Shown here piece after piece: positions 28,066 to 60,189 of a stretch of DNA of 64,000 nt; positions within the stretch are counted from its first letter, which is position 1; every line of letters starts with the position of its first letter. Below the pieces are notes generated by a model, which was not told where the DNA came from, searched no databases, and saw only the letters and a list, made by a program, of their open reading frames with translations. The DNA comes from Eukaryota sp. GEM-RC1 (lineage: Eukaryota). The stretch lies in contig JAUFOQ010000016.1 of NCBI GenBank assembly GCA_040285855.1, positions 930,001-994,000 on the forward strand. Direction: 5' to 3'. The position numbers and the translations under genes are program-made.

Positions 28066-28758
28066 TACAACATTTGTAACTACAACATTTGGTGATACAA
28101 CATTTGTAACTACAACATTTGGTGATACAACATTTGTAACTACAACATTTGTAACTACAACATTTGGTGATACAACATTTGTAACTACAACATTTGTAAC
28201 TACAACATTTGGTGATACAACATTTGTAACTACAACATTTGTATCTATTTTTAGTATTATTTGTTTGTTTTTACAATTTCATAGTTTGTAGAAAGGTTAC
28301 CTTATTGGGTGCCGAATAAACATCTCACATTTGTAACTACAACATTTGTAACTACAACATTTGGTGATACAACATTTGTAACTACAACATTTGGTGATAC
28401 AACATTTGTAACTACAAAATTTGTAACTACAACATTTGGTGATACAACATTTGTAACTACAACATTTGTAACTACAACATTTGGTGATACAACATTTGGT
28501 GATACAACATTTGTAACTACAACATTTGTATCTATTTTTAGTATTATTTGTTTGTTTTTACAATTTCATAGTTTGTAGAAAGGTTACCTTATTGGGTGCC
28601 GAATAAACATCTCACATTTGTAACTACAACATTTGTAACTACAACATTTGGTGATACAACATTTGTAACTACAACATTTGGTGATACAACATTTGTAACT
28701 ACAAAATTTGTAACTACAACATTTGGTGATACAACATTTGTAACTACAACATTTGTAA
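28066..28758. repeat. 15-bp minisatellite (TACAACATTTGTAAC / TACAACATTTGGTGA) in three blocks separated by two identical approximately 86-bp spacers; probable subterminal repeat arm of a DNA transposon
   Basis: Seen directly. Further copies occur at 59982-60038 (unit) and 12902-12980 (spacer). Confidence 0.9.
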
Positions 28759-29410
28759 TGAAAGTGTCGTATGTGTAATGAATTGTTGACCTAGACATTG
28801 ATATTTTTTTTAAACACAACCAATAAAATATACAACCTCAGTTTATCAAACTTAACTAACACTACTATATCCCCCCATCACCCTCGCAAACATCACAGCC
28901 AACGAAAACGACTCCTTATATCCAATCCCACAACAATACTCACACATCACTTCACGAAATTCATCCAATATTCCCAAACAATGTTCATCACACATCACTT
29001 CATCATTTAAATCTAATATCGACATAACAAAAGTATTGGTCAACGACAACACATTAAAGTACTTGTCCCTATCATTCAAATGAAAACTCAAAATTTCCGC
29101 CATCAATAAATTTAAATCTTTTAACAACTGAAGTTTCAAACTCATATGTGATTGACAGTCTGATGTTGTACCACTTTGGTTCCAATGCAGTGGTACAATA
29201 TCGTGGACAATTGTAAGAACCTTTGTTTCTGTCTGCATGGAAATAGTACGAGTATTGTTCAAGTTGTTTTCAAAGTCTGTCTGAAGACCAAGTGAATTTG
29301 GTAATCTGTTGACAGATTCAGTGACCTCATGTTGTGCACTATTTTTGATAATTTCAAACTAGGTAAATTCAAATTTGGTTTGAGAGTATTTCGAGACAAT
29401 AGATTTGGTC

Positions 29411-33873: not shown

Positions 33874-34430
33874 TTTGTTTTTATAGATCATTATTGTAGT
33901 TTTCTTTGTTTAGATATCAATAAAGCATCACGTTCTTCTTTTGTTTCAAGTCTCTTCCTTGTTAACACGAAATCAACATATACGTTCTAGTTCAATGCAT
34001 TGTCAATGTTGTGATACACAAGAGCATTGAAAATAACATTGTTGATGTATTAATTAATGAATGATGTCAAGTAAGTAAGTACAAAAATGTTGTATATGAA
34101 GTGTAGGAGATATCCGAAGACAGAAAAGATGTCTGCTATCTGTAGACAAACAAGACAAGACTCCAAAAATGAATACTGCAATTTCACTTTTCTTCTCTCT
34201 TGACATGCGTATGATCCTCCATCTTTCTAACTATAGACATTGTGATGATGCCAAAAGTAAGTTTTGGTCACGATATGTGCTTGCTGCCACGTATATCTAT
34301 GAGAAGTGACCTCTTTACATAGATGGCAATTCCGCTCTTCTTGTCAATTTGTCTCCTGCACTCGACAAGTGGGCAAGATGAGTTGGGTTGTCATCTGGTG
34401 TATCGTGGTTGCACTTATTGCTTTGCTTTG

Positions 34431-34520
34431 CGTCCACATCCGCCATTTCTCAATTCCGCCATCCAGATACTGTTTCCATTGCACGGTCACGGGATTTGGA
34501 TGGTGGGTTGAAGGAATGTG
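34431..34520 (+). ncRNA. Solo copy of the conserved stem-loop motif (type A)
   Basis: CCGCCATCCAGAT-ACTGT-TTCCATTGC-ACGGT-CACGGG-ATTTGGATGGTGG, homologous to the 141-bp unit. Confidence 0.55.
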
Positions 34521-35062
34521 TTGTTCCGTGGTTTTCTCTTTATCCACTTCTTCTGTGATGATGCTCCTTCAGTTATCTCCTCTGCTGAAAACACTGGATT
34601 TCTGACTGATTCTTGCTGAATGCCTCTTGCATTGTATGTTTCGTAGATCCGCTTAACGTTGCATTGAACCACTTGAAGATTGTCCTCTGAGAAGTATGGT
34701 TGTCTTGTGATTTGTCTTGGCCATACTGTATAACAACTTTCTTCGTTCCCTCCGTTTCATTTCTCTCTGCTCTTCTTCTCAAAGTCACAATGGGAACATC
34801 TTGAGCAATAGCTTGGTGGTATATCTTCGTTCCTCTGTACAATTCAGAAGCAGAGTAGATCAACAGATGTAAATGGTCTTTATGTCATATACATCACCTC
34901 TTCAAATCCTGCCACCCCCGCTTCTTTGGGAACAAAATTCGTTGGTGAAAAACAGAAAATGTGACTTTCAATATCAATTAAGTTGGGGCGATATCCAGAT
35001 CAATCACTGTCCTGTTAATAGACAGAATTTTGCATAAAGTAATAAGGCCTTTCATACTGGGA

Positions 35063-35867
35063 CTATCTAAACTCAACTGAGCCCGAAACCCTGCAATGGA
35101 GTCAGTCTCGAGTTGAGTTAGATAAGGATAGGGAGGCTGCATCATCAAAGCTACGGCAGTGGATGTTGAAAATCTACTGTTTATCCACAAGTGCAGTTGT
35201 ATTTGAGTTACAATAAGTTTTAATTACAACTGATTCAGTTCCAAAAACTTTCAAGGCTTGTTTCTATGAAGAGAAATTTTTTAGACGTAGACGCCTTACC
35301 CATTATTCAAGAAAAGAACGAAGTGAACAAAACTTGGTCCACAGATTTGCTCTCCAATATGGTGATCCAGATTTTCACATGAATCAAAAACTTGCCATTG
35401 GAACGTTGAATATAGACAACGACGTTGTCGAAACTCTTCATACAGAATGTTTTTGATTTAAACTTTTCGTTACTAAAAAATTGTTTTAGTATCTTCAAGT
35501 AAATCTGTAGTTCTCATCATGAAAAGAACCAGTCACAAGATAATTAATAAAGTTAAGGCTCATTGTTCTGGGCCATTTGTACTCAACCCAGCAACAGACT
35601 GATTAGTGAACAAATTTTTGAACACGTTTATGTTGGTAAGATTTCTTAGGTTTGTGGCAGCCGACACTTAAATTCTTAGTGTGGGAACTTTCTCAAAAAC
35701 TCAACCTTCAAGTGTATGATCGTACGAATAATCAATGGCGACTTCCACGAATTAAGTGTCAAGACCTGATTTTGCCTAACCCTTCTTCTCTTTCCAGTTT
35801 GACTAAAACAGTTAACGAGGCTCTTGCCATTCCTGTTAAAACTACTACTCCTTCAATTTCTACTTCA
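35063..35867. other. Mosaic of short scrambled fragments of the downstream helicase/Fanzor block
   Basis: Eight segments of about 21-108 nt match the 48.2-48.5, 43.3, 45.6, 45.7, 52.8, 44.5, 39.9 and 36.4 kb regions. Confidence 0.85.
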
Positions 35868-37738: not shown

Positions 37739-37888
37739 ACGCATAGTAATAAATTGTTCTACATGTATCTAAGAGAAAATAAAAGTGTACACAAAGCGAT
37801 CCTTGTAAATGTAGTTGTGAAGACATGAGAATTCCTTGTTCTATCAGTACAGTATAGTTGTTTACAGCTCCATAATTTTCCCACTCCA

Positions 37889-40800
37889 ATGACTTCTATT
37901 ATACTGCTAACACCCCTCGCCTCGTCCACATCCGCCATTGCTTCATCACATCACCCAAACACTGTTTCCATAGCACGGTCACGGGATATGGATGGTGGGT
38001 TGAAGAAATGTGTGAATACGTGCTTCCCGATGTCGTCTCCGCTTATTCTGTGCTCTATCCTCTCGTCCACATCCGCCATTGCTTCATCACGTCATCCAGA
38101 TACTGTTTCCATAGCACGGTCACGGGATTTGGATGGTGGGTTGAAGAAATGTGTGAATACGTGCTTCCCGATGTCGTCTCCGCTTATTCTGTGCTCTATC
38201 CTCTCGTCCACATCCGCCATTGCTTCATCACGTCATCCAGATACTGTTTCCTTAGCACGGTCACGGGATTTGGATGGTGGGTTGAAGAAATGTGTGAATA
38301 CGTGCTTCCCGATGTCGTCTCCGCTTATTCTGTGCTCTATCCTCTCGTCCACATCCGCCATTGCTTCATCACGTCATCCAGATACTGTTTCCATAGCACG
38401 GTCACGGGATTTGGATGGTGGGTTGAAGAAATGTGTGAATACGTGCTTCCCGATGTCGTCTCCGCTTATTCTGTGCTCTATCCTCTCGTCCACATCCGCC
38501 ATTGCTTCATCACGTCATCCAGATACTGTTTCCATAGCACGGTCACGGGATTTGGATGGTGGGTTGAAGAAATGTGTGAATACGTGCTTCCCGATGTCGT
38601 CTCCGCTTATTCTGTGCTCTATCCTCTCGTCCACATCCGCCATTGCTTCATCACGTCATCCAGATACTGTTTCCATAGCACGGTCACGGGATTTGGATGG
38701 TGGGTTGAAGAAATGTGTGAATACGTGCTTCCCGATGTCGTCTCCGCTTATTCTGTGCTCTATCCTCTCGTCCACATCCGCCATTGCTTCATCACATCAC
38801 CCAAACACTGTTTCCATAGCACGGTCACGGGATTTGGATGGTGGGTTGAAGAAATGTGTGAATACGTGCTTCCCGATGTCGTCTCCGCTTATTCTGTGCT
38901 CTATCCTCTCGTCCACATCATGGAAACGTGATCTCTCTATCGATGGAGACGTTGAGCAGAATCCAGGTCCCCATGATCGTTTACCATCCCCAGAAGTAAA
39001 GAGACCCAGAAGAACTTCTGTGTCACCATCGCCTCCTCCATCTCTGCCAGAAACGCTACCAGAAGAACTGCCAACACAAGAACCGCCAACACAAGAACTG
39101 CCAACAGAAGAAACTCTAACAGAAGAACCGCCAACAGAAGAAACTCAGCTAAAACAAAAGAAACATAATCAAAGAACTAAATACCACATGGGCATATTGC
39201 ATCGTTACTGCCGTATTCCACATGAAACTTTTGCCCATCCAGTGCTAAGATCTGGAAGAACACCTGGTTTCCAAGTTTGTTCATGTATGAATCATGTTTT
39301 TATAGATGAATCCGAAAACTTAACTGATCTCGCTCCAGATGTCATTCCCAATCCAGACAATGAATCACGACGCTCGTTCCTGGCCCAAATTATGCAAGAG
39401 TGTTGCAAACCTGGTGACACGCCAAGTAATTGGAGAATTGAAAATTACATCATGGCCAAACACTATGAATCGGAGTTGATTGAATGTCAACAAGATGCTA
39501 ATCATTACTTGCTCAGTTATGATGGAGCGTTGGAATCCCTCCATAAATATTGGTGTCAATTGTGTGACCCTAATCGAGAATCTACTGTGAGTTTACCGAT
39601 TATGCCTCTTGGATTCAAATATGAGATGCCTCCCCATTGTCCTCAAAAACAACCTTCTTTTCGTGAATCGTTTTGCCTTTTTATTGCTCCATGTCTCTTC
39701 TGCCTTCTTCCTGGTCACAGTTATAATGAATGTCCCTTCCAAACTTTTAGACTTAGTGATGTTTCATTAAGTATCACATCCTTGTATCAAAATATCAACC
39801 CTAAAGTTTTGGTACGTCCTGAGGTTATGCTGGACATTTTATTAACAATGCTCCATCTGCAATTTGTTGTGGAGGAGAAAAAACTCAACCTTCAAGTGTA
39901 TGATCGTACGAATAATCAATTTACTTTGGAAATGTACAAAGAAAACCAAAAAGTGATTGAAAAGTTTGCAAAGTCAAAAGCTACTTATAAACTCAAAATG
40001 TTAATCTTTGATATTGCTCATGTTATTGAATTAATTAAAAAAGAAGCCCCCAAAATACCTGATGTTGATGTCAAAGATTCTGATTTTGAACATACTGACG
40101 ATCCTACAGACGATCCTTTAAATGATGACGGATTTGATGATCTATATAATCAAACTTCTGTTAGTATTATGTGGGATGATTTTAATAATATCAGAGATTC
40201 GTCCTACACTTCTCAATTACTTTCAAGATTTTTTAACTTTTGTCATTTTCTCGAGCACTATACTTTTGTGGATACAGATGAAGAAAGCCGCATTGTCGAA
40301 ATTAAAGACCCTGAAACTAAACAAGTTGTACAACGGAAAGAAGTTTACCGACATCAGTTTACTGTATATCAAGATTTTTTCGAAAACAAAATTGAAACTA
40401 TGAGTATGCTCATGTTCCAACTGTCATTTTGTGCCCATTACCATTATGAACAAAAAAAAGAAAACAAAGATCTCTCTTTAATGTCTTTCTGTTTCCAGGC
40501 AATGGAATACTTAGTCTCATTGTCATGGTTGGCGTCAAATCATAGTGATTACAAGATGTTGTTAGATCATTATCTTCAATGGAGACGACCTCCCCGCTAT
40601 GTTTACAATTTCCCAAGCACTGTGACTTCACCAGAGGAACCAACGTGTACATTTACATCAATTGATTTTCCTAAAGTATGTTCTAAATTAGCACATTTGA
40701 AATCTTATGTCCGCGAAAGTGATTTACTAACACAAATTCTTCAAATTTTGACACTAAATGAACAGTGGAATAATACAGTTGACAGTAATGACGCCTACTT

Positions 40801-43800
40801 CCACTTGGTGTTTTCTTGCTTTCAGTTGATTTCAAAAGCACGTAACTGCCGTATTGCATTTGTTAATGAAGGAAAAGACACTTTTTATCAATTGTTTCGT
40901 GTTGTTGGTCAAAATCATGTCAAAGACAACAATATTATTCCGTTTATTGTTTCTGGTCAAACAGGTTCCGGGAAATCTGTCTTAACTGGTGTTGTTGTGG
41001 TTATGGTTACTTTGAAACCAATCATTGTGTGTCAACCTAGAGTTCTACCAGCCACAAAACTCTCCGATTTTATCAATGATTTATGTCATAGTGATTTTCC
41101 TCTGTCTGGATACCGAACAGGCAACAAGAATACGAACATTCCAGTACATTCACCAAGATTTATCGAAGTTCAAACCGCTGCCTTCACTTCTAAATTTCTG
41201 ACAAATAATAGCAATCTGTCTCGATTTGCAACTATCATGGTGGATGAAGTTCATGAAAGAAAATGTGACATTGACATTTTATTAGCACAAATGAGAATAA
41301 TTTCCCAAACTGATTCAAAATTGAGAGTGGTAATCTGTTCGGCAACTATGGACAAACCTAATCCTTGTTTTAATTACCTTACACAAGGAAATTATTTAGA
41401 TACCGAACCCTCCTATACTATCCATGCAGCTGGAAGAACCAATCCACTGATTGTCCTTGATGTGAATTTTGTTCGTCAAAATGAATTTCATTATAGTCCC
41501 TTAATATCAAAACTTGTGATAACTCCGATTTTTGAACCTACACTTCAACAGGTTTTCAACGATCATTTTATTGATATTTACACTTATTTTGTCTTCAATG
41601 TGAACTCATACTACGACTATTTCACTCAACACTGTAATCCTCTTTCATATAAAAGTATCAATTTCAGAGCGTTAGCCCGACTATGTCTCTGTTATTACTC
41701 CCTGTCTCAGAAACTTTTTCAGTTTGAACCAGAATGTACAGGATTTACTTTGCTCGTGTTTCTTCCTGGAAGTCCAGAAATTACAACTCTCAGTAATATT
41801 ATTGAGAATGAGTATGAGAGTCAGAAAAAAGTGGATCTGGTGGTCTATACATCCCAGCTTCTTCTGAGAAGCCAGGTGTGTATCCGTTGTATTCAAGTCT
41901 GGATTCAGTCCAACAAGATGCAGCTGTGGCTAAACCAGCGAAAAAACAATTTAAAATTGTCATTGCTACCAATATAGCAGAATCTTCCTTGACTATTGAT
42001 GGGGTCAAATTTGTCATTGACTGTGGTTTGTCAAAGCAAACTGATGCAGATGACCTTCTCGACACTCATCATTGCTCCATTGCTTCTTTGGACCAGCGCT
42101 CTGGTCGTGCTGGAAGAAATTCTCCTGGACTTTCGTTACGTCTTGTGCAGACAAACTTATATCCGAATGGAACTTCGAGATTGCATTTCGACGAACCAGA
42201 AATTCTAAATTGTTCGTTGATTGAGCCATTGTTAACAATCAAACAGATCGCTGAAAATCCTCAATTTTTAATCAGTAATCGTCCAAATCCCCCTGAATTT
42301 TTTATCAGTCAACTGCCTGATGTTCCTTCTAGCGAGAACATCATGTCTTCGGTTGATGTTCTTTTCCGCACTAATGTTCTTTCAAAAAACCAACTAAATT
42401 CTCCCCTTACTTATCTCGGAAAGATTTGCACCAATGCCAATATTTCATTCTACAACTTCAAGTTTTTATTTTTCTGTTTAACAAACAATTACCTGTGTCC
42501 TGGATTGATTCGTCTTGCGGGTATCAATTCTATGTCGTTCATTCGTTGCTCTCGTACAACTTTTATGTCATTTTACGATTTGTATACCTTTTCACAATCG
42601 ATTCCTTTACTCAAACAACTCTCTACTATTGAAGAATCTAAAGTTGTACGTTCAGACATGTTTTTCAAATTATCCTTGGTTCATTACATTTTATGTGGCG
42701 AATTTATTAAAAATCTGGATATTGTCCCAACACGTGATCAAACCCTTAATGATCAAGCCCTTAAGAATTTATCTAAATTAGTTTTTTTGGAAAAAACTAG
42801 AGCGATATTTAAATGAACTAAGATCTTTAGTTTCACGTTTCGTGGATATGGAAGATTCTAATACTCATCTCAAAAATCAATTAATATCATTGGAAGGCAT
42901 TGCTCTAAAACTTGTCAATTTCATATCAAATCCTTCTGAAGTTACACTCAATAAGTTTCGAAATGAATCAACAATCTTCTCTTCTCTTTTTGAATCTCCA
43001 AATTAAACGACGTCTCTCTTTCAAGCCATTGTGGCTTCTTATCCCAATAAGTCATTCCATTCAACTGTAGTAGACAATTCATTCTCAGTTAGGTTGAAGT
43101 TGGAAGGTTATGTCAATGGAAAAAATTTAACAGCTTTATAAAGAAATTGTTTGATGAACAAAAAATTGTCAAATCTTCCAAATCTCTAAAAGTTAATGAC
43201 AGTGATGATGACAGTACTCGTTCAGAGACATTATGTTCAAAAGTTAAAATTACTTCAGATCTAGCTCCAGGTGAAACCGAAAGCACTGTTGTTATGTTGC
43301 ATTCAGAGAATACAACTGAAATTGAAAATCTACTGTTTGTCAACAAGTGCCGTGGAACTCTTTATTCATTAAAAAATTTTTCTCTTACGTTCCATCTTGA
43401 TTGGTATAGATTCATTATCAAATCACGATTCAATTTATCAATGGCATTGAAAGTTGTCAATGACCCAGAATTTTGGAACATGTACAACCAATTGTTACAG
43501 TGGGGTAATATCGTACATTTGCATATACCAAGAAATTCTATTAAATTAACTTTCGACATTATGTCAAGTCCTTGTAGTGATTTGACTCAATACACTCGTA
43601 TTGATAATGAGTGGTCCAAGGAAGTTAAATGTGCCAAATCACTGTTCCCTGTACCTACAGATCTAGGTTATCATAATGGTATTTCTGTTGGTGATAAGTT
43701 TCCACAATTCTTGTCTCATATTCCTTCTTCTTTTCAATACTTGTTCATCGTATGGCTCATGAACTTCAATATCAATTTGGTTTCGGAAATGGCAAAGCCA

Positions 43801-46031
43801 TCTATCAAGGTTGGTACACCAATGCATTGTCAAGATTCGAGGTTCAAACAATTAATTGCATACAGTAATGAGCTGGATATTCATGGATCTTTTGAGGTAA
43901 AACGTGTCTGGAATGTTTACTGGCCTTATCATGAGTTACCAATCGAATCCACCTTTGGATGTATCAATCGATTACGTATTTTGGTATATTTAACGGAACA
44001 AGGTGAGGTTCCCATAACTGTGTTGAAATCGTGGTATGACAACATTATTATTCTTGATTTCAACTTACTGAAAAGTAACAGTCCACCAGTTACCGTGGAT
44101 TATGTGAATGGAAGGAAACATCATTTCCAGTTACTAAATTTCCAAGTCAATGATGAACAGGACCTGTTGATGTGCTTTGATCCTGCGTGTCCTTTATGTG
44201 CATCATCATGTACTACACTTAATGAAGTAGTAAATTCTGAAATTACCTTAGCCCAACACAAGGTTGAAGAACCTATGATCCCCGAAAACGCTGACCTTCC
44301 TGAACCCATGATTAGTGAAACTACTGCATTGCCCCAGTCACCAGTAGCTACAAGTACTTTGGATTTGTCATCTTGGACTAAGTCGTATTGTACTGCCTCT
44401 TCTCATACTGCTAAATATTTAGGACAAAATGTTCAAATCTTAAATTTTACACGTGAAGAAATGAGAACTTTCTATGTTGTTTTTTCATTTGAATCAAAAA
44501 TTGCCATTGGAACGTTGAATATAGACAACGACGTTGTCGAAACTCTCCATACAGAATTTTTTTCTGCTATTACTCCTACTCCTACTCCTGTGTTGAATGT
44601 TACATTACGATTTGTAGTCTACAACATTGATAAAGAACTCCGAAGGTTCAGTCGCAGTATTGATGATGATAGACCACAGTGTAAACCATTTGACAATCAA
44701 TTGACTATGTTTGCACTTCATCATCAATTGCTTTACCAGGCCATACTGATTGCTTTTGAAGGGCCCATATTTATGATTCAATACAAGCCAAAAACAGACA
44801 AACGAAAGACTATTCGACAAGTATTACCGTTGCCGTTGGCCAGAGACAGTTTTGATTCTCAATGTATTGACATGGCTGCTGCAAAAATTGTTTTGTTGTC
44901 GCAACGAAGACTCTGTTGTTGATCATTTTTGTGCAGGAAGATGAAAAAATTGTGTTAATTGTTCAGAATTATCAACATTAATGGATTTAAACATGTCTGA
45001 AATTGATCGTGACGAAGAATTCAAAAGTTTGAAGTGCTATGACGATTTCGTTCTAGTTGTCGGCACTTGTTCCATCCGAAAGTTAGACTTGTATGAAAGG
45101 GAGCTGCTTGGTGAACAACCTGTATGGGAATTTTGCTCCTGTCACAAAGATGACAGAATTATAGATGCAGTGTATGTTAAGCATTATGACACAATAATGT
45201 ACATCACGGAATTTGGGTTCTGTGTTGGTTTCGGTTTGAAACTACCAAAGAAACAGATTCAATTTATTATTGATTGTTCAAGTGGTGAGTTAACAGGTCA
45301 ACTGTTAAAAATCGATTTTTGCAATGATTTAAATTCTTTCATTGTTCTGAAAAGGATGGAACACTGTTAATGCTTTCAGCATTATCTGTGATTGGTATTT
45401 CTGGTGTACCATTAGAAGTTCATGATGTTCGCTCTTGTGATTCAAAAAATATTTACGAACAACGAAGTCTTGAACTACATGCTTTAACTGTTCAATCGAC
45501 TCAACAAGTTCAACAAGTTGAGATTCCTGTTGTTGAAGAAAGTGCTCATCCCATCGACATTGATACGACGAAAAGACTTCAGTTTCTTTCATCTAGATGG
45601 AGTGTTGATGAAAAAATCAACAAGGTGAAGCATTTGTTGACTATATTTGAGTTACAAAAGTTGTAATTACAACTGATTCAGTTGAAAAAGTAAGGAAACT
45701 TTCAAGGCTTGTTTCTGAGGTTGCTTTTAAAGTTGTGACACTAGAGGGTGGAAAACCACGAAAGATTACATCAAGTCTGAAAATATTCGATGAACAGACT
45801 GATCCTGTTTTATTGATCAGTACTACTCAATTAGCGGTTAACCATTCTGTTCGGGCTGATCTTTGTATAATCTTTGATCTGCCAAATGATGCCAGACATG
45901 TTTACAATTTGTATGAACATAATCAAAAAATCGTTGTCTTTTACGATTCTATCCGTGATAAGGACAAAAAGCAAAATTTGGAAAAACACTTCTTTAGACC
46001 CTCAGGATTGCAAGCACTTGATTTTATATAG
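37889..46031 (+). CDS. Very large polyprotein: repeat leader, 2A, CCHC knuckle, DEAH/RHA helicase and a long unknown C-terminal region (probably one ORF broken by indels)
   Basis: CLFCLLPGHSYNEC; GQTGSGKS, QPRVLPA, DEVHER, SATM, FLPG, ATNIAESSLTIDGV and QRSGRAGR. Abutting ORFs continue to 46031. The last one (LLISTTQLA...IIFDLP) resembles a degenerate helicase C-domain. Confidence 0.75.
37921..38919 (+). repeat. Seven near-identical tandem 141-bp units, each containing a long stem-loop; in frame (47 aa)
   Basis: Units start at 37921, 38062, 38203, 38344, 38485, 38626 and 38767, with a partial unit at 38908. Confidence 0.97.
38921..38971 (+). other. 2A/StopGo ribosomal-skip peptide WKRDLSIDGDVEQNPG|P
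   Basis: Exact match to D(V/I)ExNPGP, preceded by DL..DG. Confidence 0.9.
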
Positions 46032-46534: not shown

Positions 46535-48012
46535 TCATTCTTCGTTTTCCTGTTTTTTCCCTAAAACTTCATTTTCGTCTTTTGTCTTTAACGATTTGTT
46601 TTCAAATTTTGTTCTTGAACAATCAATTACATTTTGTTCTGTCACCAAGTCAGGTTGTACACTCTGAAGTAGATCATACATAACAAGACATAGATTTTTT
46701 CTTGATCTGTTAGTGTATAATTTTGTCTGATTTTGTTCCTGACGTGCATCAACCATTAATCCTTGTAAAATTAAAGTAACATTCAAACAGACAATCCATC
46801 CACAGATAAGAGACGATGTTGACTGTGCAAAAGGTATATAGTAGTCCACCTTATACTCTGGTAATCTTGCAAACAGATTTGTTTCCCCACATCCATAAAC
46901 AGTTCTAAAAGGATTAACGATTAATTCAGTGGTTAATGAATAATCCAAAGAATCATAAATATTGAATAGTAAAACATTTGCTTCATTTAGAAACAATTCA
47001 ATAAGAATCCAATGACCAGATCCTGCATCACCAGGAACATGTTCTTTCACCAAACATAATGGGGCAAGAATTCTTTTCCTGATTTTAGTGTATCGACAAT
47101 AGCCTTACCAGAATGTAAGGCATAGCATATTGGATCACCAACCAACTGTTGAGTTTCTTGAGATTGCAGGAACTTGTACCTACTTGATTTAAATTTTTGG
47201 AATGCAAGCATCACAATGAAATCAAGTTCAGAACTCAACAAGAGTTGTGTTTTACCTTCCCTATCATCCTTTGTCAACATTTTTTCAATATCACAAAATC
47301 CAGATTTTAATTTTGAATTTATGTAAAACTGATCACTGATTAAATCTACAGAAAGAATCAACGGGTTACGTTGTTTTTTGCGTTTCATAGGTTTAGATAA
47401 ATTAGCATTATCAATGACCGGAACAGGAACTATTTCAGATGGTTCAGAGAAAATAGAATGAATATGATTGATTGCGAAGTTATCAATACGACGTTTTGGT
47501 GAAGGAAAAACGACTTGAGATGGAGTATCGTTAATGCGAGTATTGTCACAAGCATGTAAAAGAGTAGGAGACTGAGGCTGAGGAGGAGGAGGGGAACGAG
47601 CAATTGTAACTCGTTTAACGTCTTTGAGTAGATCCTTAAGATGATTTAGAGTTGAAGTTGTTGATTGAAGTGGAAGAGATATGTCACGCTTCTCATAAGA
47701 ACCATCAAAAGGAAAGAGATGAACAGTTTCTAGATCAACATCTAGCACAATGGCAACGGCTGCTTTGTAGTTGAGGCAAAAATCCATGGTACCCTTTTTA
47801 AGATCATCTGGTAAGTCAGATGTTGACACTTCCGTTATGTGGATGGATTTAGTTCTCCATGAATTGTATGTTCCATAAGGAAGAAGAACAAGTGACAAAT
47901 TAACTGCATGCTTATCAGCAAGCTTTACAACAAGTTTCATATATGTTTTGATGGTACGGGAACGACTTTCTTGTTCAGAAGTATTTCTGAGTTTGAAAAT
48001 TGAGTAGGACAT
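46535..48012 (-). CDS. Ulp1/C48-like SUMO/Ubl protease (frameshift near 47055)
   Basis: GHWILIEL...YDSL...QSTSSLICGWIV gives the H-D-Q-C catalytic order. Confidence 0.65.
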
Positions 48013-48159
48013 GGGAAATTCTGGTATAGACTTTATTACAGATTTCGTTTTTTAACACGTGAATTCCCACACACATGTCCATTACAGTCTGTGTGGGATT
48101 TCATTTTCCTTCCTCCTACAGTATAAATGTCGTTTGTTCTGCATCCAAACAGATGTTGT

Positions 48160-48535
48160 CCGCCATTCTGTCCTTATCTGACTCAACTTGTGACTGTTTC
48201 CATTGCACGGTTTCGGGCTCAGTTGAGTTTAGATAAGGACAGTTCTTTCCCTCCACTGCCTCCGCTTCTGTTGCTTCTCCCTCTACTGCCGTTGCTTTCC
48301 CCACTTCTGTTGCTTCGATAATGCCGCCATTCTGTCCTTATCTGACTCAACTTGTGACTGTTTCCATTGCACGGTTTCGGGCTCAGTTGAGTTTAGATAA
48401 GGACAGTTCTTTCCCTCCACTGCCTCCGCTTCTGTTGCTTCGATAATGCCGCCATTCTGTCCTTATCTGACTCAACTTGTGACTGACTCCATTGCACGGT
48501 TTCGGGCTCAGTTGAGTTTAGAAAAGGACAGTTCA
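48160..48535 (+). repeat. Three tandem copies of stem-loop motif type B
   Basis: Copies at 48160, 48324 and 48449: CTGTCCTTATCTGACTCAACT ... ACTG(TT/AC)TCCATTGCACGGTTTCGGG ... AGTTGAGTTTAGATAAGGACAG. Confidence 0.92.
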
Positions 48536-49756
48536 TTCTGTGTTTTATCAACACATACATTTATTGCCATGAAGTACTCGTCTCCCCTGTTTATCCCTTC
48601 CCATCCTCCGTTCCCAAAAGACCTCACCGCTGATGGTGATATTGAATCCAATCCAGGACCCGTAACTCAAGAAGCCATAAACTCAGTTTATCCTAATCAA
48701 TGGGTTGATGACGAAGCGATAGTGGAGTACTGTAAAGTGATATTTCAAGAAGCAGGGTTAGACTTTGAAAGCATGTTTATCCATCCGACCACATGGCTTC
48801 AATACATTGTTTCACCAGATGTCCCGCTAGATCAATGGTTGTTGACGAAAATTGAGAAAAATCAAATCACAAACTCCAAATATCTCTTTGTTCCCCTTAG
48901 TGATACCATGACTAGAAATACTAATTATTCCAGAGAAGGTGTCACTGGTTCTCATTGGGGTTTAGCCATTATAGACTGTTGTGAAAAGGAATGGATCTTC
49001 ATTGATCCAATGTTAACTACCGTCGATATGAGTAAGTCTATGGTAAAATCAGCTGTAGACATATTATCCGAAGTACTTGTGCCATGGGGGTATGTTTTCC
49101 GTTATGTACCTGTGACTAAAAGTCAGTCTGCTAACGACTGTGGAGTTTATGTCATTGCGTATATTCAAAAATATGTTGAACTTTTTAAAAGACTCATGTA
49201 TGTTCCGTCTCTGATGTATATGGAGTCTGATTTGGTCCAAGTGAACATTGAACTTCAAGCAGACATATTTCGTGAAGAAATTCTGGAGGTCTTGTCTCAA
49301 CAAAGGACACTTTATCTACAACAACGTCAAACCACAGTAGCTCCTATTGTACCATCGTTACCCATTCAACCTCCTGCCGGTAAAGAACATCCAACCACTT
49401 CAATTCCTCTCACAGGTTCACGTCTTGCTAGTACTAAAACATCTACTGGTTTAAGCACTAAAAAAAGGAAAGCCAAAATTTCAGATGTTCCATCACCACG
49501 AGGTTCACCTTTAATTCAACGAAATAAATTTAGAACTACCAGCTCCCTTGTTTCAACTGGTGACACTCCAATACGAAAGACCCACCGCCGTATGTCCACA
49601 TTGGAATCATCGGAATTACCACAATCTGAACTATCATCACCATCTGAACTATCATCACCATCTGAACTACCACCATCTGAACTACCACCAAAATCACAGG
49701 CCTCCATTATGTCGTATCCATCGCCAATTCAAGAAGAAATCCAAAAATGGAAGTAA
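48446..49756 (+). CDS. 2A followed by a Ulp1/SENP (C48) protease domain and a Ser/Pro-rich linker
   Basis: WVDDEAIVEY, LFVPL, SHWGL, IDPM and QSANDCGVYV. Confidence 0.85.
   Translation: MPPFCPYLTQLVTDSIARFRAQLSLEKDSSFCVLSTHTFIAMKYSSPLFIPSHPPFPKDLTADGDIESNPGPVTQEAINSVYPNQWVDDEAIVEYCKVIFQEAGLDFESMFIHPTTWLQYIVSPDVPLDQWLLTKIEKNQITNSKYLFVPLSDTMTRNTNYSREGVTGSHWGLAIIDCCEKEWIFIDPMLTTVDMSKSMVKSAVDILSEVLVPWGYVFRYVPVTKSQSANDCGVYVIAYIQKYVELFKRLMYVPSLMYMESDLVQVNIELQADIFREEILEVLSQQRTLYLQQRQTTVAPIVPSLPIQPPAGKEHPTTSIPLTGSRLASTKTSTGLSTKKRKAKISDVPSPRGSPLIQRNKFRTTSSLVSTGDTPIRKTHRRMSTLESSELPQSELSSPSELSSPSELPPSELPPKSQASIMSYPSPIQEEIQKWK
48620..48661 (+). other. 2A/StopGo peptide DLTADGDIESNPG|P
   Basis: Exact D(V/I)ExNPGP consensus. 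Confidence 0.9.
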
Positions 49757-50751
49757 ATCTACACACTGAGCCTATAGAAGAAGAAATACAAATTCAAGAC
49801 TTTCTTAAATCCCCTTTACTTTGGAACAATCTGCCAACTTTTTGTTTAATTCATGTTCAAAGTGATTTTGCCAGTTCAGAAAGAATTAATGGCAAAAATG
49901 TTCAACTTGTTCAAGATGATGATGACATTGAAACTGTTGAAGGTGAAGCTGAAGATCAATTAGAAGTTAAACGTGATTCTTCTGTTGATCCGATTGTATC
50001 AATTTCCATCCAGATCATTGATCACAATGAATTCAATGAAAAGCATTTATTTTCTCATGGTAATTTTGATACTACAAACTTGGATTTGTGTACTTTACAT
50101 ATTTCAGATAGTGAATCCAGTATGCTTAAAAACTTCATTTCCTTCATTACTCAACATTGTCCGCGATTGTTTGTGAGTTATGACTTTCACTTAGATACAT
50201 TTCCCTTTCTTGTATCACGTTGTCAAGTCCTCAAAATCAATACAACGTTTACTTTTCCAGAATTTAAACCCTATATTCCCTTTTGGTTCAACAAATGGTG
50301 TAAGGAAACAACTTTTGGTCCGTTTTTTAGTCTCGATTTGAATGCTGTATTGAAGAATTTTTATGTCTTTACTGGTGGCCGTTTTTTGGAAAATGTTGTT
50401 CAAATTTTTCTTGAAATGAATAATTTTTCTAAAAATGAAACTGTCAAACGCTTGGAAGAACTTGATCATGACTCTGATCCTGATGAAGTTCAATTGGTCA
50501 ATGATGTCCAAAACTTGCATGGCATAATTGACAGTATTAATGTTTTAGTTCCAGACAATCCCAAAGTGAAGGTCGATAAGATTAAAAAGAAATTTGTAAA
50601 AAATTTGGAGAAAGTAAATGAACTTTGGGCCAAGGAATCGACAAGACCGCTATTGTTGATGAACTCAATTCAACAATTACCTCTGATTGAATACTTATTG
50701 GCTGACCTATTGGATCCCAAAAACAAACATTACGTTCAAAGTCACCAATGA
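49747..50751 (+). CDS. Degenerate family-B DNA polymerase 3'-5' exonuclease-like domain
   Basis: SESSMLKNFISFITQHCPRLFVSYDFHLDTFPFLVSRCQVL and LDLNAVLK...LENVVQIFL resemble PolB Exo II and downstream motifs. Catalytic residues appear altered. Confidence 0.5.
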   Translation: MEVNLHTEPIEEEIQIQDFLKSPLLWNNLPTFCLIHVQSDFASSERINGKNVQLVQDDDDIETVEGEAEDQLEVKRDSSVDPIVSISIQIIDHNEFNEKHLFSHGNFDTTNLDLCTLHISDSESSMLKNFISFITQHCPRLFVSYDFHLDTFPFLVSRCQVLKINTTFTFPEFKPYIPFWFNKWCKETTFGPFFSLDLNAVLKNFYVFTGGRFLENVVQIFLEMNNFSKNETVKRLEELDHDSDPDEVQLVNDVQNLHGIIDSINVLVPDNPKVKVDKIKKKFVKNLEKVNELWAKESTRPLLLMNSIQQLPLIEYLLADLLDPKNKHYVQSHQ

Positions 50752-53630
50752 AAGTGGTTAAGAAACGACTAGACAATGTTGTGTCCAAAGCGAAGGTTAA
50801 ATTTATTGAATCTCGTGTTAAGAGAGCTCACCAAGTAAGAGTCCGTAGTACTCTCTTTTTGAAACATTTTTTTGTTCATAATTTTCACCATTCTGGTATT
50901 TTAGGTTACATTCAGAAGTTACTGCCTGCTGCTGTTCCAAATGTAACTGTTAAGGAAGAAATGAATTCTGATACAGATGAGTCAACTGACGAAGAAACAG
51001 ATGTACATTCAGAGTCTATCGATGCTGTTACTCCTCCTATTAAATTAGAAAATATTGAAGATGCGAGTGATGAACCTAAACCTGAACCTGACCTTTGGAC
51101 TAAAATTCAAACTGCCAAAATTGAATTGCCAGACTGGAAGAATTTTTTTACGTTGAAATCAATGGAACAAGTGTTGTCTATGATGACGATTAGGGACAAC
51201 AAACTTGTAAACAATCAGAATCATATTGAGACTGTACAAAAATCGTTAACAAACATAATTTCTAACACAAATGATGGCTCAACTCAAAATCAGTTTGCTC
51301 AACACTTATTGTTTCATTACATTCCTCGTTTAGAACTAGCTGCTGATTCCGTTGGACTTGATAGGATTGTGTTTCCCAGTAGCCATCGTTTATCTCCTAT
51401 ATTGCATTACATGGCTACAGAAATTATTACAAATTACAAGAAAAACATGAGTGAACACTTTCACGAATATGTTTTTCAAGTATTTAATTTGGTTACCCTG
51501 AAAAAGAAAGACTTAACAAGCGTACTGATAAGAATCAACGACAAGAGTTGTGTACAAAGCTTAATGAAGTCAGACAGTTGATCATTAATGGGGAAATTTC
51601 AAAAATTAATTTTCAAGATGTTGAAGTGTTTCCTGATCCCAATTCTAGACTGAGTTTACTATTTTTTAACTATTTGTTTACTTTTTTTGAAGGTAAAATG
51701 GAAAAAACAATCTATTATGCAGAAAAAGTAGATCCTTTGAAATTCTTAAGTCATGCAGTGTATTTGAAACGTCTTGTTGAGGACTCTTGTACTGGAGTTA
51801 CTGCCAACAATCCTTTTCCTCTGACAAAATCATTGATTCCTAATCATATCAGATTGGATACTACATGGTTTAAAAAAGTTTATGCATCAGAAATTAAAGG
51901 TAGCTTTGATGACGTTCGAAAAGATATTTGGCACTCAGTTTTGAAACCAAAGTTTCTTCCAAAGTCATTGTCTCATGACTTCAAATACAGTTCTATTTCT
52001 ACAGATGGAGTTAGCTGTAGTTTAATGATGATGCGGAAAGATCTGCTTGATGGGAGAGGAAATCCTCATAAGAAGGTGAAAGCTGTTGACTACACAGCTA
52101 CTGAAAGGTACATTGATTCTTTGAGTTCCACAGAAATTCAAAACTTAAATTTGAAATCAAAAGAATTGTTGCTATTGATCCTAATCAGCATGATTTGATG
52201 TATTGTGCTTCTTTAAAATCTAAGGAGGAAAAGAAAATCGAAGGTTTCGATACATCAGCCAATCTCAGAAGAAGAAAGATTTGTCCAAAATCGTCAAAGA
52301 AAAAAGGAAGCTTGAAAAAATTAAAAAAGGAATTGAAGGATTGGAAAGACGCACCTACTATTGACAAACCATCAACTGTCAAGTTGAAAAATCGAGACAA
52401 TTGGAAAGTATTCAGATACACTGCTGGGGAACGCAATGCCGATATTAAAAAGTCTCCATGGAAAAGAAAAAAACAAGTAAGGAAAGAAAAAGAGCTAAGA
52501 GGAAGAAGAGGAAGCTGGAGAAGAAAATAAGACGATACAATCTCCACCGTTTATCTGAATCCGAACGGTTACAACAATATTCTACTCAATTTATTCACAT
52601 TCCAGATGGCAGACGCATTGACATAAATGGGCAACAAATTTTAGATCAATGGGGCTCTAACTCGCCAGGTAGTAAATCTTGTGAATTGACTCAGTATTCT
52701 GCTTTTGTTCTTGGTAAAGAAATTGCCTGCTCTTTACTACGATCACCCACTACTGATCAAAAAACTACTGAAGGAATTTACGAAGAAAAGTGGTTTAGAC
52801 GGAATCGTCTCACACAGTATTCAAGAAAGGAACGAAGTGAGAAAAACATGCTTCACAGATTTGCTCTCCAGTTTGGAAACCCAGATGAAGTCGTTGTTGG
52901 GTATGGAGACTGGAACGACACTACTTTTCGTCGAAGAAGAGGTAAAGCATCTACTGTAAAAGGTGCTTCAATTCGGAAATTATTGAGAAAATTTGGATTT
53001 AAAGTGTTCCTAGTTGATGAATTTAAGACCAGCAAATGTTGCTCTGCATGTGTTTCCAGAAACGACGAAGGTATCTGTTCCAATCCTGAAAGGATAAAAG
53101 TCACTGATCCTCATTGGAAGAAGAAGTTACAGAAGGAAGAGAAAAGAATTAAAAAAGGAAATTATGGAACACAATCAATTAGACAATATTGTGGAGCGTA
53201 ACTTTGATGATGAATGGACCAAACAGTTGACATTATCGAAAGAAAGATTGAAGAGCAAAAAGTCTCACCATGGGGCTTAGTTGAATGTGCCAAATGTCAT
53301 GTCCTCTGGAATAGAGACTTCAATTCTGCTATCAATATTTACAATATTGTAAATGGAACCATTCAAGGTCAAGGTAGACCTGCCATCCTCGAGAGACCAA
53401 AATCTCAAACAACACCTGTCGTGGATGGCGGGAATACAGATCAGATTCCTAAGAAAAAGACTGTGAGTAAGGGTAAGGGTAAAGCAAAGCGTCCTCTAAC
53501 AAAAGTCAGAGGTCCTAACAAGTGTGGTATATGTTTTCAACCTGGACATAACAGAGCAACTTGTCCAAATAAGCCTAAGAAAGATGTACCCAAGGACTCA
53601 CATGTAAACCAGAAAGATCAGGAATCTTGA
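50748..53630 (+). CDS. Fanzor: Fanzor (eukaryotic TnpB-like RNA-guided RuvC nuclease, Fanzor1-like) with a C-terminal zinc knuckle; several indels at A-runs
   Basis: ISTDGVSCSL; RuvC-I VAIDPN (D at 52177); VVVGYGDW; RuvC-II LVDEFKTSKCCSAC (E at 53019); CAKC..WNRDFNSAINI (D at 53316); CGICFQPGHNRATC. Confidence 0.9.
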
Positions 53631-55416: not shown

Positions 55417-55562
55417 CAGTTGTTTTTTAAAAAAAATGGCTGTGAATTTTTGATTTTGTATATACAATGTAACCATTTTTTTTAAATATCGTATTTGGGT
55501 AAAAAAGAACAATAAAACAAAACTATTTTAAAATTCAATAATTTTAAAAACTAAGTTCTAAC

Positions 55563-56841
55563 TTACTTAATTCGTCTAATCATTCCAATAGCCACATTCA
55601 CACCCTCACTCCTTAGAACAAACCTTCCTAATTGCTTACACCTCTCAAAGGTATCAACTGCTATAGGTTGAGTCGTCTTCAATCGAACTGCAGCGTGCTG
55701 ACCCTGACGAACAAATCTAGGTCTTTTCTGAATAATTTCCTTGGTTTTGGGATTGATCTCTGCAAGAATTTGGTCTACCTCAACCTCACAAATCAATGAA
55801 TGTATGTGCAACACTGCTTGATATCCAGGTGCAATAATATTCTTAACATCCATGATAACTAAATGGGCATCAAACGAACACGTGGCTGGGCAAGGATCGT
55901 CAGCAGGACAAATGATTGATCCAGGGTGGAAATCATCATCTGAAATTCCCTTTAGAGCGATTCGAACATTATCACCACAGAAAGCTTGTTCCACACTCAC
56001 ATCTTCAATATAAATACCAGAAATCTCTGTTTGCAGATTCTCCGGCATCACCACCACCTTTGTCCCAACGTTTACCGTCCCCGTTTCCACTTTCCCTACT
56101 CCACAAGCAGCTCCACGGTCTCTAAGTTTAGCAGACAGTGGGACACGTAGAGCACCAGTGATATTACGGCGAGGAGGTTCTAGTTTATCCAGTACTTCAA
56201 AGAAACAAGGTCCTACATACCACCGGTCCTTGCATCGTTCACTAATGTTCTCCCCAGAGAATCCAGAAAGTGGAAGGAAAGTGACATCAGAGTTGGTGTT
56301 GAAGCCAGATTTACGTAGAAAGGGGAGTCATGCGTTTGACAATATCATCATATCGTTCCTTTGACCATTCTACTGTGGGTTCATCCATTTTATTGATGGC
56401 AACAATGAGATGCTTGATGCCGGCAGTCTTGAGAAGAACAGTATGCTCTCTAGTCTGTCCTCCCTTGTCAAAACCAGTTTCAAACTCACCTCTACGAGCA
56501 GAGATGACGAGAACGGCGACATCTGCTTGGGAGGCTCCACCAATCATGTGATGAACAAAGCCTTTGTGACCAGGAGCATCGAGAATAGTGAAACGCTTTT
56601 CACCTGTGGAGAAAGTAGCATGACCAACTTCAACAGTTTTTCCTTTTTCACGTTCGTCTTCATCAATATCAAGAGCATAAGCATGTGCCCAAGAAGCACG
56701 ACCTTTGGCTTCAGCTTCGCGAGCAGACTTTTCTAGAGTTCGTTCATCGATTTCATGGCAGATAAAGAGAATATGGCCACAGAGAGTTGATTTTCCACAA
56801 TCAACGTGACCAGCAAAGACAATAGAAAGATGTTTGGACAT
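55563..56841 (-). CDS. eRF3: Eukaryotic release factor 3 GTPase (frameshifts near 56100-56320)
   Basis: GHVDCGKST, EREKGKTVEVG, DAPGHK, MIGGASQAD, GEFETGFDKGGQTREH, NKMD and LGRFVLR. Confidence 0.9.
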
Positions 56842-56892
56842 TAAGTCAAGTAAGAAAGCTGAAATCCAAAACTTGTTACAGTTCAATTACCA

Positions 56893-58689
56893 ATGACTTC
56901 ACATCTTACTGAAACCCAACTTAGAATTGGGTCTGAATATCTCTCTATAATTCCTTTGGGAGCAGGTCAAGAAGTTGGACGCTCCTGTATTATTGTCAAA
57001 TTCCATGGTAAATCTATCATGTTAGACTGTGGTATTCATCCTGCTGAGACTGGTGAGGGTCAACTACCTTTTTTTGATGAAATAGATCCATCCACCATTG
57101 ATGTTGTACTAATCTCTCATTTCCATCTTGATCATATTGGAGCAGTCCCTTATTTCTGTACAAAGACTTCCTACACTGGCCCTGTCTACATGACTCATCC
57201 TACTCGTGCTGTGTTTCGAATGCTCATGTCAGACTTTCTAAGACAAGCCACTGAAGCTCCAATCTTTAACGAATCTAACCTCGAGGACTCCTTGAAAAGA
57301 ATTACTGCAGTACAATACCACCAAGTTTGTGAGTTCGCTGGGCTTCGTTTCTGGTGTTACAATGCTGGACATGTTCTAGGTGCATGTATGTGGATGATTG
57401 AGTTTGCCGGCACACGTGTTTTATACACTGGTGATTTCTCTCGACATGAAGACCGTCACTTATGTGCTGCTGAAACCCCAAACATTAGACCAGACGTTGT
57501 CATTTGTGAAAGTACCTATGGAATCTCCACTCACAGACCAAGAGAGGAGAGAGAACAACAACTTACTGACAACGTAGGAAGGACGATTAGAAGAGGAGGG
57601 AAGGTGTTGATGCCGGTGTTTGCTCTAGGTCGAGCTCAAGAACTTTTACTGGTTCTGGATGAGTATTGGGATTTAAACCCTGATTTACAACAGTTTAATT
57701 TGTTCTATGCTTCTTCGTTGGCTCAGAGGTGTATGCCTTTGTTTAGAAGTTCAATCAATTCAATGAATGAACAGATTCAAGAGCAGTTTAATATTCGAAA
57801 TCCCTTCATTTTTAAACATGTTAAACAATTAAAGGAGACAGTGGCTTTTGATCAAACCAGACCTTGTGTCGTCATGGCTTCTCCAGGTATGCTGCAGTCG
57901 GGTCTATCACGTGAGCTTTTTGACCTGTGGTGTACTGATGACAAGAATATGGTACTGTTGCCTGGGTATTCTGTTGCTGGTACTCTGGCTAAAACTCTAC
58001 AATCAGATCCACTGCAGGTTACGTTAAGTGATGGTCGTCGAGTTGGACGGAAAATTGAAATTGTATCAAATATTTCATTCTCTGCTCATTCTGATTCAGT
58101 TCAAACTAAAGAGTTCATCAGCGAGACCAATCCTCGTCATGTTGTTTTAGTTCACGGAGAATCTAACGAAATGATTAGATTTCAGAACGATTTAAAGAAA
58201 CAGTTTGGTAAACTTGGTATGGGAATTCACGCTCCTAAGAACATTTCTGGAGTTAAGCTGAGATTCAAACAGGATAGAGTGGCTTTAGTTAGAGGGAGTT
58301 TAGCTGAAACTGCAAGTAAAGGAGGTAGAATCGATGGGGTACTCGTACAGGACGGATTGGATTTGTCAATTGTTGCTCCCGAAGACATTGGAGCTGAAAC
58401 TGGGGTGGAGCCAGTCTCTGTGATATCTACGGTGAGGTTACCCAGACCTAATGGTGACGTTGGAGAGATTTTGGGAGCCTTGCCATTGGATGTGGAAAAG
58501 TTAGATGACGGAAAATGGAGGGTTGCGAATGTGGAAGTTGTTGACGAGGGCGATGATGGTGAGATTGTGCTGGATTGGGAAAGTAGTCTGGTCGATGATT
58601 TAGTCGTTGATGCGATCTCTATTGCTCTGTTGAAGGGGCAAGATATTGTTGATTATTCTAATGCTTTCTGTAAAGAGTGTTCAAAGTAG
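56893..58689 (+). CDS. CPSF3: CPSF73/Ysh1 pre-mRNA 3'-end endonuclease
   Basis: PLGAGQEVGRSC, SHFHLDH, AGHVLGA, PVFALGRAQELL, ASPGMLQSGLSRELF, FSAHSD and LVHGE. Confidence 0.95.
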   Translation: MTSHLTETQLRIGSEYLSIIPLGAGQEVGRSCIIVKFHGKSIMLDCGIHPAETGEGQLPFFDEIDPSTIDVVLISHFHLDHIGAVPYFCTKTSYTGPVYMTHPTRAVFRMLMSDFLRQATEAPIFNESNLEDSLKRITAVQYHQVCEFAGLRFWCYNAGHVLGACMWMIEFAGTRVLYTGDFSRHEDRHLCAAETPNIRPDVVICESTYGISTHRPREEREQQLTDNVGRTIRRGGKVLMPVFALGRAQELLLVLDEYWDLNPDLQQFNLFYASSLAQRCMPLFRSSINSMNEQIQEQFNIRNPFIFKHVKQLKETVAFDQTRPCVVMASPGMLQSGLSRELFDLWCTDDKNMVLLPGYSVAGTLAKTLQSDPLQVTLSDGRRVGRKIEIVSNISFSAHSDSVQTKEFISETNPRHVVLVHGESNEMIRFQNDLKKQFGKLGMGIHAPKNISGVKLRFKQDRVALVRGSLAETASKGGRIDGVLVQDGLDLSIVAPEDIGAETGVEPVSVISTVRLPRPNGDVGEILGALPLDVEKLDDGKWRVANVEVVDEGDDGEIVLDWESSLVDDLVVDAISIALLKGQDIVDYSNAFCKECSK

Positions 58690-59196
58690 AGTTTTTAGAC
58701 TGTTTTTGGTAGCAACTTTTTCTTCATTTGTCCAGCGTCTCGTTACAATCAGAAATTGAACTCAACGGTTTTCTTGTTTGCTATTCCATGTTGTTCTGGT
58801 ATTCACCAATTTTCTTTAAAATCTTCAAGATTTTGGAGATTTAACGTATGGGATTATCCTAACTGCTAGTAGTATTTGTTTTTGATACTTTATATGCCAA
58901 TTGTAGTTAGCCTTGAACTACTAATTTTGATGATTAATCATCATCAATAATTTGAATAAATGTTCAAATATTCAGAAAAGAAAGTATGTTCTGTGAGCTT
59001 GCAATCTGGAATGAAAGATTGTAAAGAACCAATACATGTACTACTCTAGTAGTAGATCGGACAGTTTATATTACATGTAAGACATACTAGTAAGTGCAAA
59101 ATGCATACTTATTATACAATGATTAAATATTTAATCACAATGGAACAAAAATGTCAAGCAAATTTAACAGAAGTTTGTCAAGAAAAAAAAGCCACA

Positions 59197-59823: not shown

Positions 59824-59981
59824 TGAATTTCATTTAATCTAGAGTCACTTTGGACAGATCATCAACTTACGACAATATCAGTTCCATCATCAAATGTATA
59901 GCAAACATCACAATCATTGGCAGATCCAATACAGAATCACAAACGAGAATTATGTTGGATTTATCTTATCAACCAGTACTA

Positions 59982-60038
59982 ATTTGTAACTACAACATTT
60001 GTAATGACAACATTTGTAACTACAACATTTGTAACTAT
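59982..60038. repeat. Short copy of the 15-bp ACAACATTTGTAACT minisatellite
   Basis: About four units identical or near-identical to those at 28066-28758. Confidence 0.85.
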
Positions 60039-60189
60039 ATTGTAGTGTTGCAATCAAAATGTATTGATGGCTTGAAAATACCAAAAGTAAGAATATTGGT
60101 AACATAATTGTTTACTTCAAAAACGTTAAACCTTAAGAAACAAACTCGAGTATTATCTACAAACTATCAATCGACAAAAAGTACACTCT

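Follow-up and report, generated by a model that had tools for sequence, protein, structure and literature searches.

A predicted hairpin RNA motif repeated between the start codon and a putative 2A peptide in a multicopy gene block of Eukaryota sp. GEM-RC1

The stretch of 64,000 nucleotides analysed here, which we refer to as the window, carries a 141-bp unit repeated in tandem just before a sequence resembling a 2A peptide. This raised the question of whether the repeat is an RNA element, and of what kind, or whether it is conserved for the peptide it encodes. The first-pass annotation had described a structured RNA amplified seven times, and the array itself was confirmed as 7.1 copies with 98% matches at 37921-38919 on the + strand. 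Each unit contains a 25-nt core (at 37961, 38102, 38243, 38384, 38525, 38666 and 38807). A pattern search found 12 copies of this core in the window, each with at most one mismatch, against none in 100 shuffles; the remaining five are at 34469, 35082-35106 on the - strand, 48193, 48357 and 48482. A covariance model built from the eight distinct copies recovered the same 12 cores at 79-103 bits, and in the window nothing else scored above 12 bits except the reverse strands of these copies. The solo copies reported earlier at 34431 (+) and about 35063 (-) were found by both methods. The copies are arranged as follows:

37921 to 38919, + strand: family A array, one hairpin per unit of 47 codons, found by repeat search, core pattern and covariance model
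48160 to 48538, + strand: family B array of three hairpins (48160-48249, 48324-48413 and 48449-48538)
34431 to 34521, + strand: solo family A copy with the best-paired stem and the loop AUUGCAC, outside any ATG-2A context
35064 to 35163, - strand: solo family B copy, truncated at its 3' end, with the loop AUUGCAG and without a 2A

Between families A and B the core is identical at 19-21 of 25 nt, whereas the basal stems are unrelated, yet each pairs, as had been proposed for the region around 48160. The stems have no other match within the window. The sequence CCGCCATT, described as common to the copies, is present in families A and B and absent from solo B. The array units are not all alike (A1 and A7 differ from A2-A6, and A3 has one change), which argues against a pure assembly artefact. 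The family B hairpins are spaced by 164 and 125 nt. Both spacings lack one base for the frame, at a C-run, and the family B linkers contain sub-repeats of 18 and 21 bp. The related proteins P0004 and P0036 read this C-run in frame, and we read the one-base deficit in the window as a homopolymer error.

The sense strand folded better in all four copies that were folded both ways, with z scores of -3.0 against -1.45 for the antisense strand in A2, -5.0 against -1.2 in solo A and -5.9 against -4.4 in B1. Folding is weak for the first array unit, A1 (z -1.45), and also for the 141-nt unit taken whole (z -0.23). It had been argued that the mismatches are of the G-U type in sense RNA, and a strand-neutral alignment of the arms bears this out, with G-U to A-C ratios of 5:1 in solo A, 5:1 in A2, 2:0 in B1 and, most weakly, 5:3 in solo B. 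The ratio was 16:1 for solo A, B1 and three unrelated hairpins of the block taken together. The apical stem originally drawn, ACTGT/ACGGT with a 6-nt bulge, had to be abandoned. In seven of the eight copies its pair probability is 0.0, and B1 gives 0.2; the stem is interrupted in solo B and in B3, and its helix contains no two-sided change. An alternative tip has pair probabilities of 0.63-1.0, excepting one pair of B1, and is better by 0.8-8 kcal/mol (at least 4.5 in seven of the eight copies). The predicted tip consists of A.G; C-G, U.G, G-C and W-W (CUGW/WCGG); a 2x2 pyrimidine loop; two C-G pairs; and a 7-nt loop, WUWGCAS. Below it a variable basal stem of 25-30 bp is predicted. The loop heptamer is unpaired with a probability of at least 0.97 in six of the eight copies, and a pseudoknot search gave it no conserved pairing partner.

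Covariation lends this fold thin support. On the alignment of eight related rows 91% of cells are paired, compared with 20-49% in slid controls. The covariation that the annotation had called for is present as two-sided changes in four of ten pairs, but 56 of 500 shuffles also reached four such pairs. One covarying pair lies inside the core: family A has U-A, solo B and B3 have A-U, and B1 and B2 have U.U; about half of the B cores in related proteins encode the U.U variant. The A cores in these proteins are mostly NTVSIARSR, which suggests that the weaker A1 type is the most frequent one among A copies elsewhere. We predict that this motif, in many copies within long hairpins that favour the sense strand, is a real RNA motif without an Rfam match. 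Other hairpins occur in the block, among them:

34316 to 34402, + strand: long G-U-rich hairpin, z -7.0, with loop UCCUGCACUC

Together with those at 29162-29203 and 48059-48104 it makes three long + strand hairpins with core-like tips (UCCUGCAC, UCCAAUGCAG and UCCAUUACAG), a likeness that is not statistically established.

Both arrays sit in open frames that lead from an ATG into a putative 2A peptide:

37889 to 37891, + strand: ATG opening the frame through the array, the 2A and a helicase; related proteins start with MTSII or MSSII
38921 to 38971, + strand: putative 2A/StopGo-like peptide, WKRDLSIDGDVEQNPG/P, of a motif class in PMC12846837
48127 to 48129, + strand: ATG opening the family B leader, the start of P0036, P0067, P0068, P0074 and P0075
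48638 to 48661, + strand: putative 2A core DIESNPG/P after KDLTADG, from a motif scan

The array had been placed directly upstream of the 2A. The 2A motif does follow, at 38948, but the two share one open frame, in which the array comes after the ATG at 37889. The motifs at 38948 and 48638, DLSIDGDVEQNPGP and DLTADGDIESNPGP, fit (D/G/C/N)(V/I)ExNPGP with a DLTxDG-like upstream motif, which is the 2A class set out in the available text of PMC12846837. The proposed 2A peptide thus belongs to a recognised class, and skipping is predicted. Both leader ATGs follow a pyrimidine-rich stretch ending in TACAG that resembles a splice acceptor (37850-37888 and 48100-48126).

Among 51 related proteins examined, 33 contain NPGP, and 31 of these carry an in-frame A, B or C core upstream (8 A, 14 B and 9 C), in counts that are biased because only in-frame arrays are visible in proteins and the queries contained leader peptides. 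One of the 31, P0038, is 99.7% identical to the helicase gene of the window and is probably this very gene. The leaders hold 1-8 copies per protein at spacings of 38, 42, 46, 47, 51, 52 and 58 codons (114-174 nt). Unbiased evidence for the frame comes from the window, in the 141-bp in-frame unit and the sub-repeats of the family B linkers; a shuffled unit is free of stops in a given frame only 15% (A) or 22% (B) of the time. The family B spacings of the window, one base out, count against it. The cassette, AUG-(hairpin)n-2A, is by sequence consistent across a multicopy block of this anaerobic protist. The other two of the 33, P0007 and P0061, have a fourth type of leader with the shared peptide CRLT before the 2A, which P0061 repeats in a 27-residue unit.

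Conservation of this kind could also reflect the encoded peptide, T(V/D)SIAR.R. The core peptides are TVSIARSR in family A, T(V/D)SIARFR in family B and AESPAWIL in family C, with only Ser and Ala common to all three, and families A and B translate CCGCCATT in frames that differ. We therefore rejected the peptide as the cause; the core is conserved as nucleotides. Family C is known from proteins alone. Its Trp codon would keep the GG of the core, and C is inferred at loop positions 1-2. Back-translating its codons did not discriminate, since arms that do not belong together paired completely too and the score was equalled by 20 of 300 nulls.

The genes behind the two cassettes belong to a block at about 29-54 kb that encodes a PIF1 helicase, a ubiquitin hydrolase, a DEAH helicase, an Ulp1 protease, a PolB exonuclease domain and, on weak evidence, a TnpB/Fanzor-like gene. 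Positions 1-27000 and 55500-64000 of the window hold what we take, from their sequences, to be ordinary eukaryotic genes such as tubulins. The two cargoes are:

38972 to 42816, + strand: CCHC-like region and DEAH-type helicase, with a frame break at an A-run near 41830
48662 to 53630, + strand: Ulp1 protease, PolB-type exonuclease domain and candidate TnpB/Fanzor-like nuclease, in overlapping frames whose breaks mostly fall at A-runs

Pfam matched the helicase cargo to DEAD (E 1.3e-5, just under the cut-off) and Helicase_C (E 2.4e-11), and the second cargo to Peptidase_C48 (E 1.9e-6) and DNA_pol_B_exo1 (E 2.7e-8). For the TnpB/Fanzor-like gene the matches were Cas12f1-like_TNB at E 0.004-0.005, below the cut-off, and a PHROG transposase at E 0.002-0.05. 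Fanzor and TnpB are marked by a RuvC nuclease with a zinc finger at its C terminus, and we take the motifs of this gene to be RuvC-like. No reverse transcriptase was found among 23 ORFs of the block with Pfam or 21 of its proteins with PHROGs, and Pfam found no HUH domain in the block; several of the ORFs received no assignment. The frame breaks mostly coincide with A- or T-runs and are probably read errors; short introns, considered as another cause, were dropped for this reason. Should the A-run breaks stem from read errors, a single polyprotein of some 1800 aa could follow the 2A, comprising Ulp1, the PolB exonuclease domain and the TnpB/Fanzor-like nuclease (48127-53630). The related proteins P0057 and P0070 run from Ulp1 into the N-terminal part of that nuclease. 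NCBI labels every homologue of the two 2A cargoes, 9 of the one and 2 of the other, as Eukaryota sp. GEM-RC1, and these homologues lie on at least 10 different contigs. The block is therefore multicopy, and we infer that it is mobile. A taxon of that name is treated in the accessible part of PMC11316075 as a free-living metamonad; repeats make up 48% of its genome, which was assembled from nanopore data.

Several other features of the block and its surroundings were observed. The ORF at 43093-44919 gave a single-sequence fold with a pLDDT of 30; Atlas matches were at most 0.82. The ORF at 46535-47104 (-) has, by eye, a second Ulp1-like catalytic pattern and no Pfam match. At 35166-35867, adjoining the two solo hairpins, lies a mosaic of six same-strand fragments of 32-108 nt, some exactly abutting, which match block genes at 79-100% (43322, 45644, 52779, 44482, 39879 and 36378). 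A guide-RNA scaffold is expected near the end of a TnpB/Fanzor-like frame, and a stable sense hairpin at 53376-53437 (z -5.9) overlaps the end of this one. Arrays of a 15-bp direct repeat flank the block at 28066-28761 and 59982-60049, and an 83-nt dispersed repeat occurs at 12897, 28238 and 28525.

We found no homologue of the motif outside Eukaryota sp. GEM-RC1 in viral, metagenome or prokaryote DNA or among HMMER representatives. The strict core pattern gave no match in the three DNA collections. Relaxed patterns gave 2, 3 and 70 loci; all 75 were rescored, the best reaching 26.6 bits against 79-103 for the window copies, and we judge them to be chance, mostly core-only matches. HMMER searches with the unit and the 2A against 1.84 billion representatives returned 23 hits, one from the same organism (P0012) and the others 2A-only or low-complexity repeats. 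A literature search, mostly of records without full texts, found no description of the motif or the element, and the main text of a 2026 survey of eukaryotic 2A peptides (bioRxiv 10.64898/2026.06.17.732966), as far as it was available, does not mention this organism.

The annotation had also suggested a self-cleaving ribozyme by analogy with L1Tc, and the expected signs did not appear. Rfam returned no ribozyme family at E≤5 in the window or E≤10 at either locus. A descriptor of the HDV fold (the nested double pseudoknot P1-P2-P3-P1.1-P4 with a catalytic C in J4/2), run without a positive control, had 0 matches in five regions on both strands. The supposed twister L4 likeness of UCC..GC depends on the wrong apical fold, since CC is paired in the favoured one. 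Twister as a whole, which besides L4 requires two pseudoknots and a UA cleavage motif in L1, was rejected: the UCCNNNGC words are present, yet CC is paired, the loop has no conserved partner, the sense strand of the A dimer has no TAA and Rfam gives no match. Hammerhead (a three-way junction with CUGANGA, GAAA and UH) was rejected as well, since on neither strand do families A and B arrange these words alike and Rfam gives no match, and so was a non-LTR retrotransposon of the L1Tc type, with no reverse transcriptase found in the 2A ORF or among the ORFs of the block. With no conserved partner for the loop, and with the motif inside the reading frame instead of at the 5' end, the L1Tc analogy is not supported. 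The wider claim in that annotation, a conserved cis-acting RNA of the sense strand, gains support from the strand asymmetry, the pairing of two different stems and the nucleotide-level conservation of the core.

In the reading we prefer, to which we give about an even chance, the hairpin array is a signal in the translated leader of the mRNA whose tip binds a protein, with the 2A removing the peptide. A protein ligand is suggested by a conserved, unpaired tip on a replaceable stem. The ribosome would start at the in-frame AUG, read through the hairpins and skip at NPG/P. The cargo would then begin at Pro whatever the copy number, and the peptide encoded by the hairpins would be trimmed off. 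Because the 2A would separate the leader peptide from the cargo, changes in copy number or stem sequence would leave the cargo untouched, and each added copy would bring a further binding site. A protein bound at the tip would mark these mRNAs, either for better handling of long AT-rich messages without clear introns, through protection, export or translation, or for recognition in cis during mobilisation.

What might bind the tip is suggested by its loop. After the C of the closing pair, solo A and B1-B3 (4 of 12 copies) read AUUGCAC and solo B reads AUUGCAG, so that an exact heptamer occurs in 5 of 12 copies. These are the heptamers of U1 SLII and U2 SLIV (PMC2203988, PMC4114683), in which G4 and A6 are given as the most critical bases (PMC2203988, PMC4114683, PMC5992148). 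The C-G pair that closes the loop 5' of position A1 is found in 8 of 8 distinct sequences, and G4, C5 and A6 are invariant in all 12 copies; the seven array copies carry U3A, and unit A3 also A1U. The optimal loop size for U1A is at least 10 nt (PMC4114683), larger than the 7-nt loop here, and widening this loop costs 5.7-8.6 kcal/mol at best. Rfam gave no U1 or U2 match on the motif. The tip may work like a U1A site, yet we do not file it as one. An RRM protein of the U1A/U2B'' type is, by this analogy, the best candidate ligand, though overall not a likely one; the alternative is a zinc-knuckle/helicase protein encoded by the element itself. In the available part of PMC3510501, Giardia is without a clear U1A and Trichomonas U1 keeps UGCAUAU, and five supplements of PMC11316075 gave no match to U1A or snRNP. 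A broader proposal, which we regard as doubtful, is a giant, undescribed metamonad mobile element with polyproteins expressed from this modular cassette, whose tandem hairpins would mimic spliceosomal U1/U2 stem-loops and recruit a host U1A/U2B''-type protein, or form a new catalytic RNA, while the 2A would leave the count of RNA modules within the coding sequence free to change.

Other explanations compete with a protein-binding leader signal. The hairpins could enhance initiation through structure alone, each unit offering an in-frame AUG with a hairpin 11-49 nt downstream and the 2A removing the peptide. Families A, B and C have an in-frame Met in every unit, the ATG-to-stem distances are 49, 41, 11 and 11 nt, an engineered alphavirus enhancer joined to FMDV 2A works (PMC13386960), and the two CRLT proteins may use other hairpins to the same end. 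This would leave unexplained why about 20 nucleotides of the tip are conserved on stems that have been exchanged, and we think it distinctly unlikely. It is improbable that the motif is a small self-cleaving ribozyme of a new class, trimming its transcript and multiplied in tandem in the manner of retrozymes or L1Tc. The 114-174 nt units, the core with non-canonical pairs on a variable stem, the N-terminal 2A shared with L1Tc (PMC5814959) and the in-frame ATG after the last hairpin in families A and B would all suit it. The hairpin, however, is simple and unbranched, the Rfam, HDV and pseudoknot searches described above gave nothing, no reverse transcriptase was found in the block, and cleavage would remove the reason for keeping frame from the first ATG.

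The same amplification might be driven at the DNA level, by a single-strand hairpin acting in nicking, at an origin or in recombination and giving rise to the fragment mosaic as well. Repeated independent amplification, the solo copies beside the mosaic, the PIF1 helicase and the folding of family B as DNA (z -6.4) agree with this, but the DNA folding of family A is poor (z -1.6 to -1.8), the motif is always sense to the ORF and in frame, and no HUH domain was found, making this explanation highly improbable. More improbable still is a small-RNA precursor or a mimic of the tRNA-Ala anticodon loop. The hairpin loop presumably resembles that loop in having 7 nt, U at position 2, WGC and A, and it varies at the wobble-like position; the hairpin is about 75 nt long, with weak Rfam matches to miRNA precursors only (E≥1.2). 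Against it, the stems match nothing else in the window, there is no canonical 5-bp anticodon stem, and the inferred family C loop is without U. That there is no RNA function at all, only shared ancestry or peptide constraint amplified by slippage, we consider the least probable. The motif is confined to one genome, with few independent sequences and young copies, but the unrelated A and B stems both pair around a nearly shared core, the strand bias is present and the peptide is not conserved.

If the protein-binding leader signal is correct, it would give a concrete reason for the N-terminal 2A peptides of eukaryotic mobile elements, in that an RNA signal could live and multiply inside coding sequence; their role is described as unclear in the available text of bioRxiv 10.64898/2026.06.17.732966. 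The motif, short and without an Rfam entry, lends itself to direct tests of cleavage, binding and reporter output. A multicopy element not described before, carrying a helicase, proteases, an exonuclease and a TnpB/Fanzor-like gene, is indicated as well.

Among known systems, L1Tc of Trypanosoma cruzi, a mobile element, likewise has a 5' structured RNA (the HDV-like ribozyme Pr77) and an in-frame N-terminal 2A. Its ribozyme spans nucleotides 1-77 and cuts on its own 5' side (PMC5814959), whereas the motif described here has no HDV fold, is tandem and lies downstream of the ATG, in a block with two 2A genes and no RT/APE found. U1 SLII and U2 SLIV share AUUGCAC/AUUGCAG 3' of a C-G pair at the tip, with G4, C5 and A6 invariant here; they differ in having a loop of 10-11 nt within an snRNA, compared with 7 nt, U3A in family A and a coding leader of mRNA in the present case. 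Retrozymes and the hammerheads of Penelope-like pLTRs are also built from tandem units of 100-200 nt with a conserved core, but families A and B share no hammerhead core and their units keep the reading frame. The alphavirus design that couples a downstream loop, or capsid enhancer, to FMDV 2A has a hairpin in the first codons and a leader removed by the 2A, as proposed here; the cassette of this protist is by contrast natural, tandem and variable in number, with a conserved tip, and is found in a cellular DNA genome.
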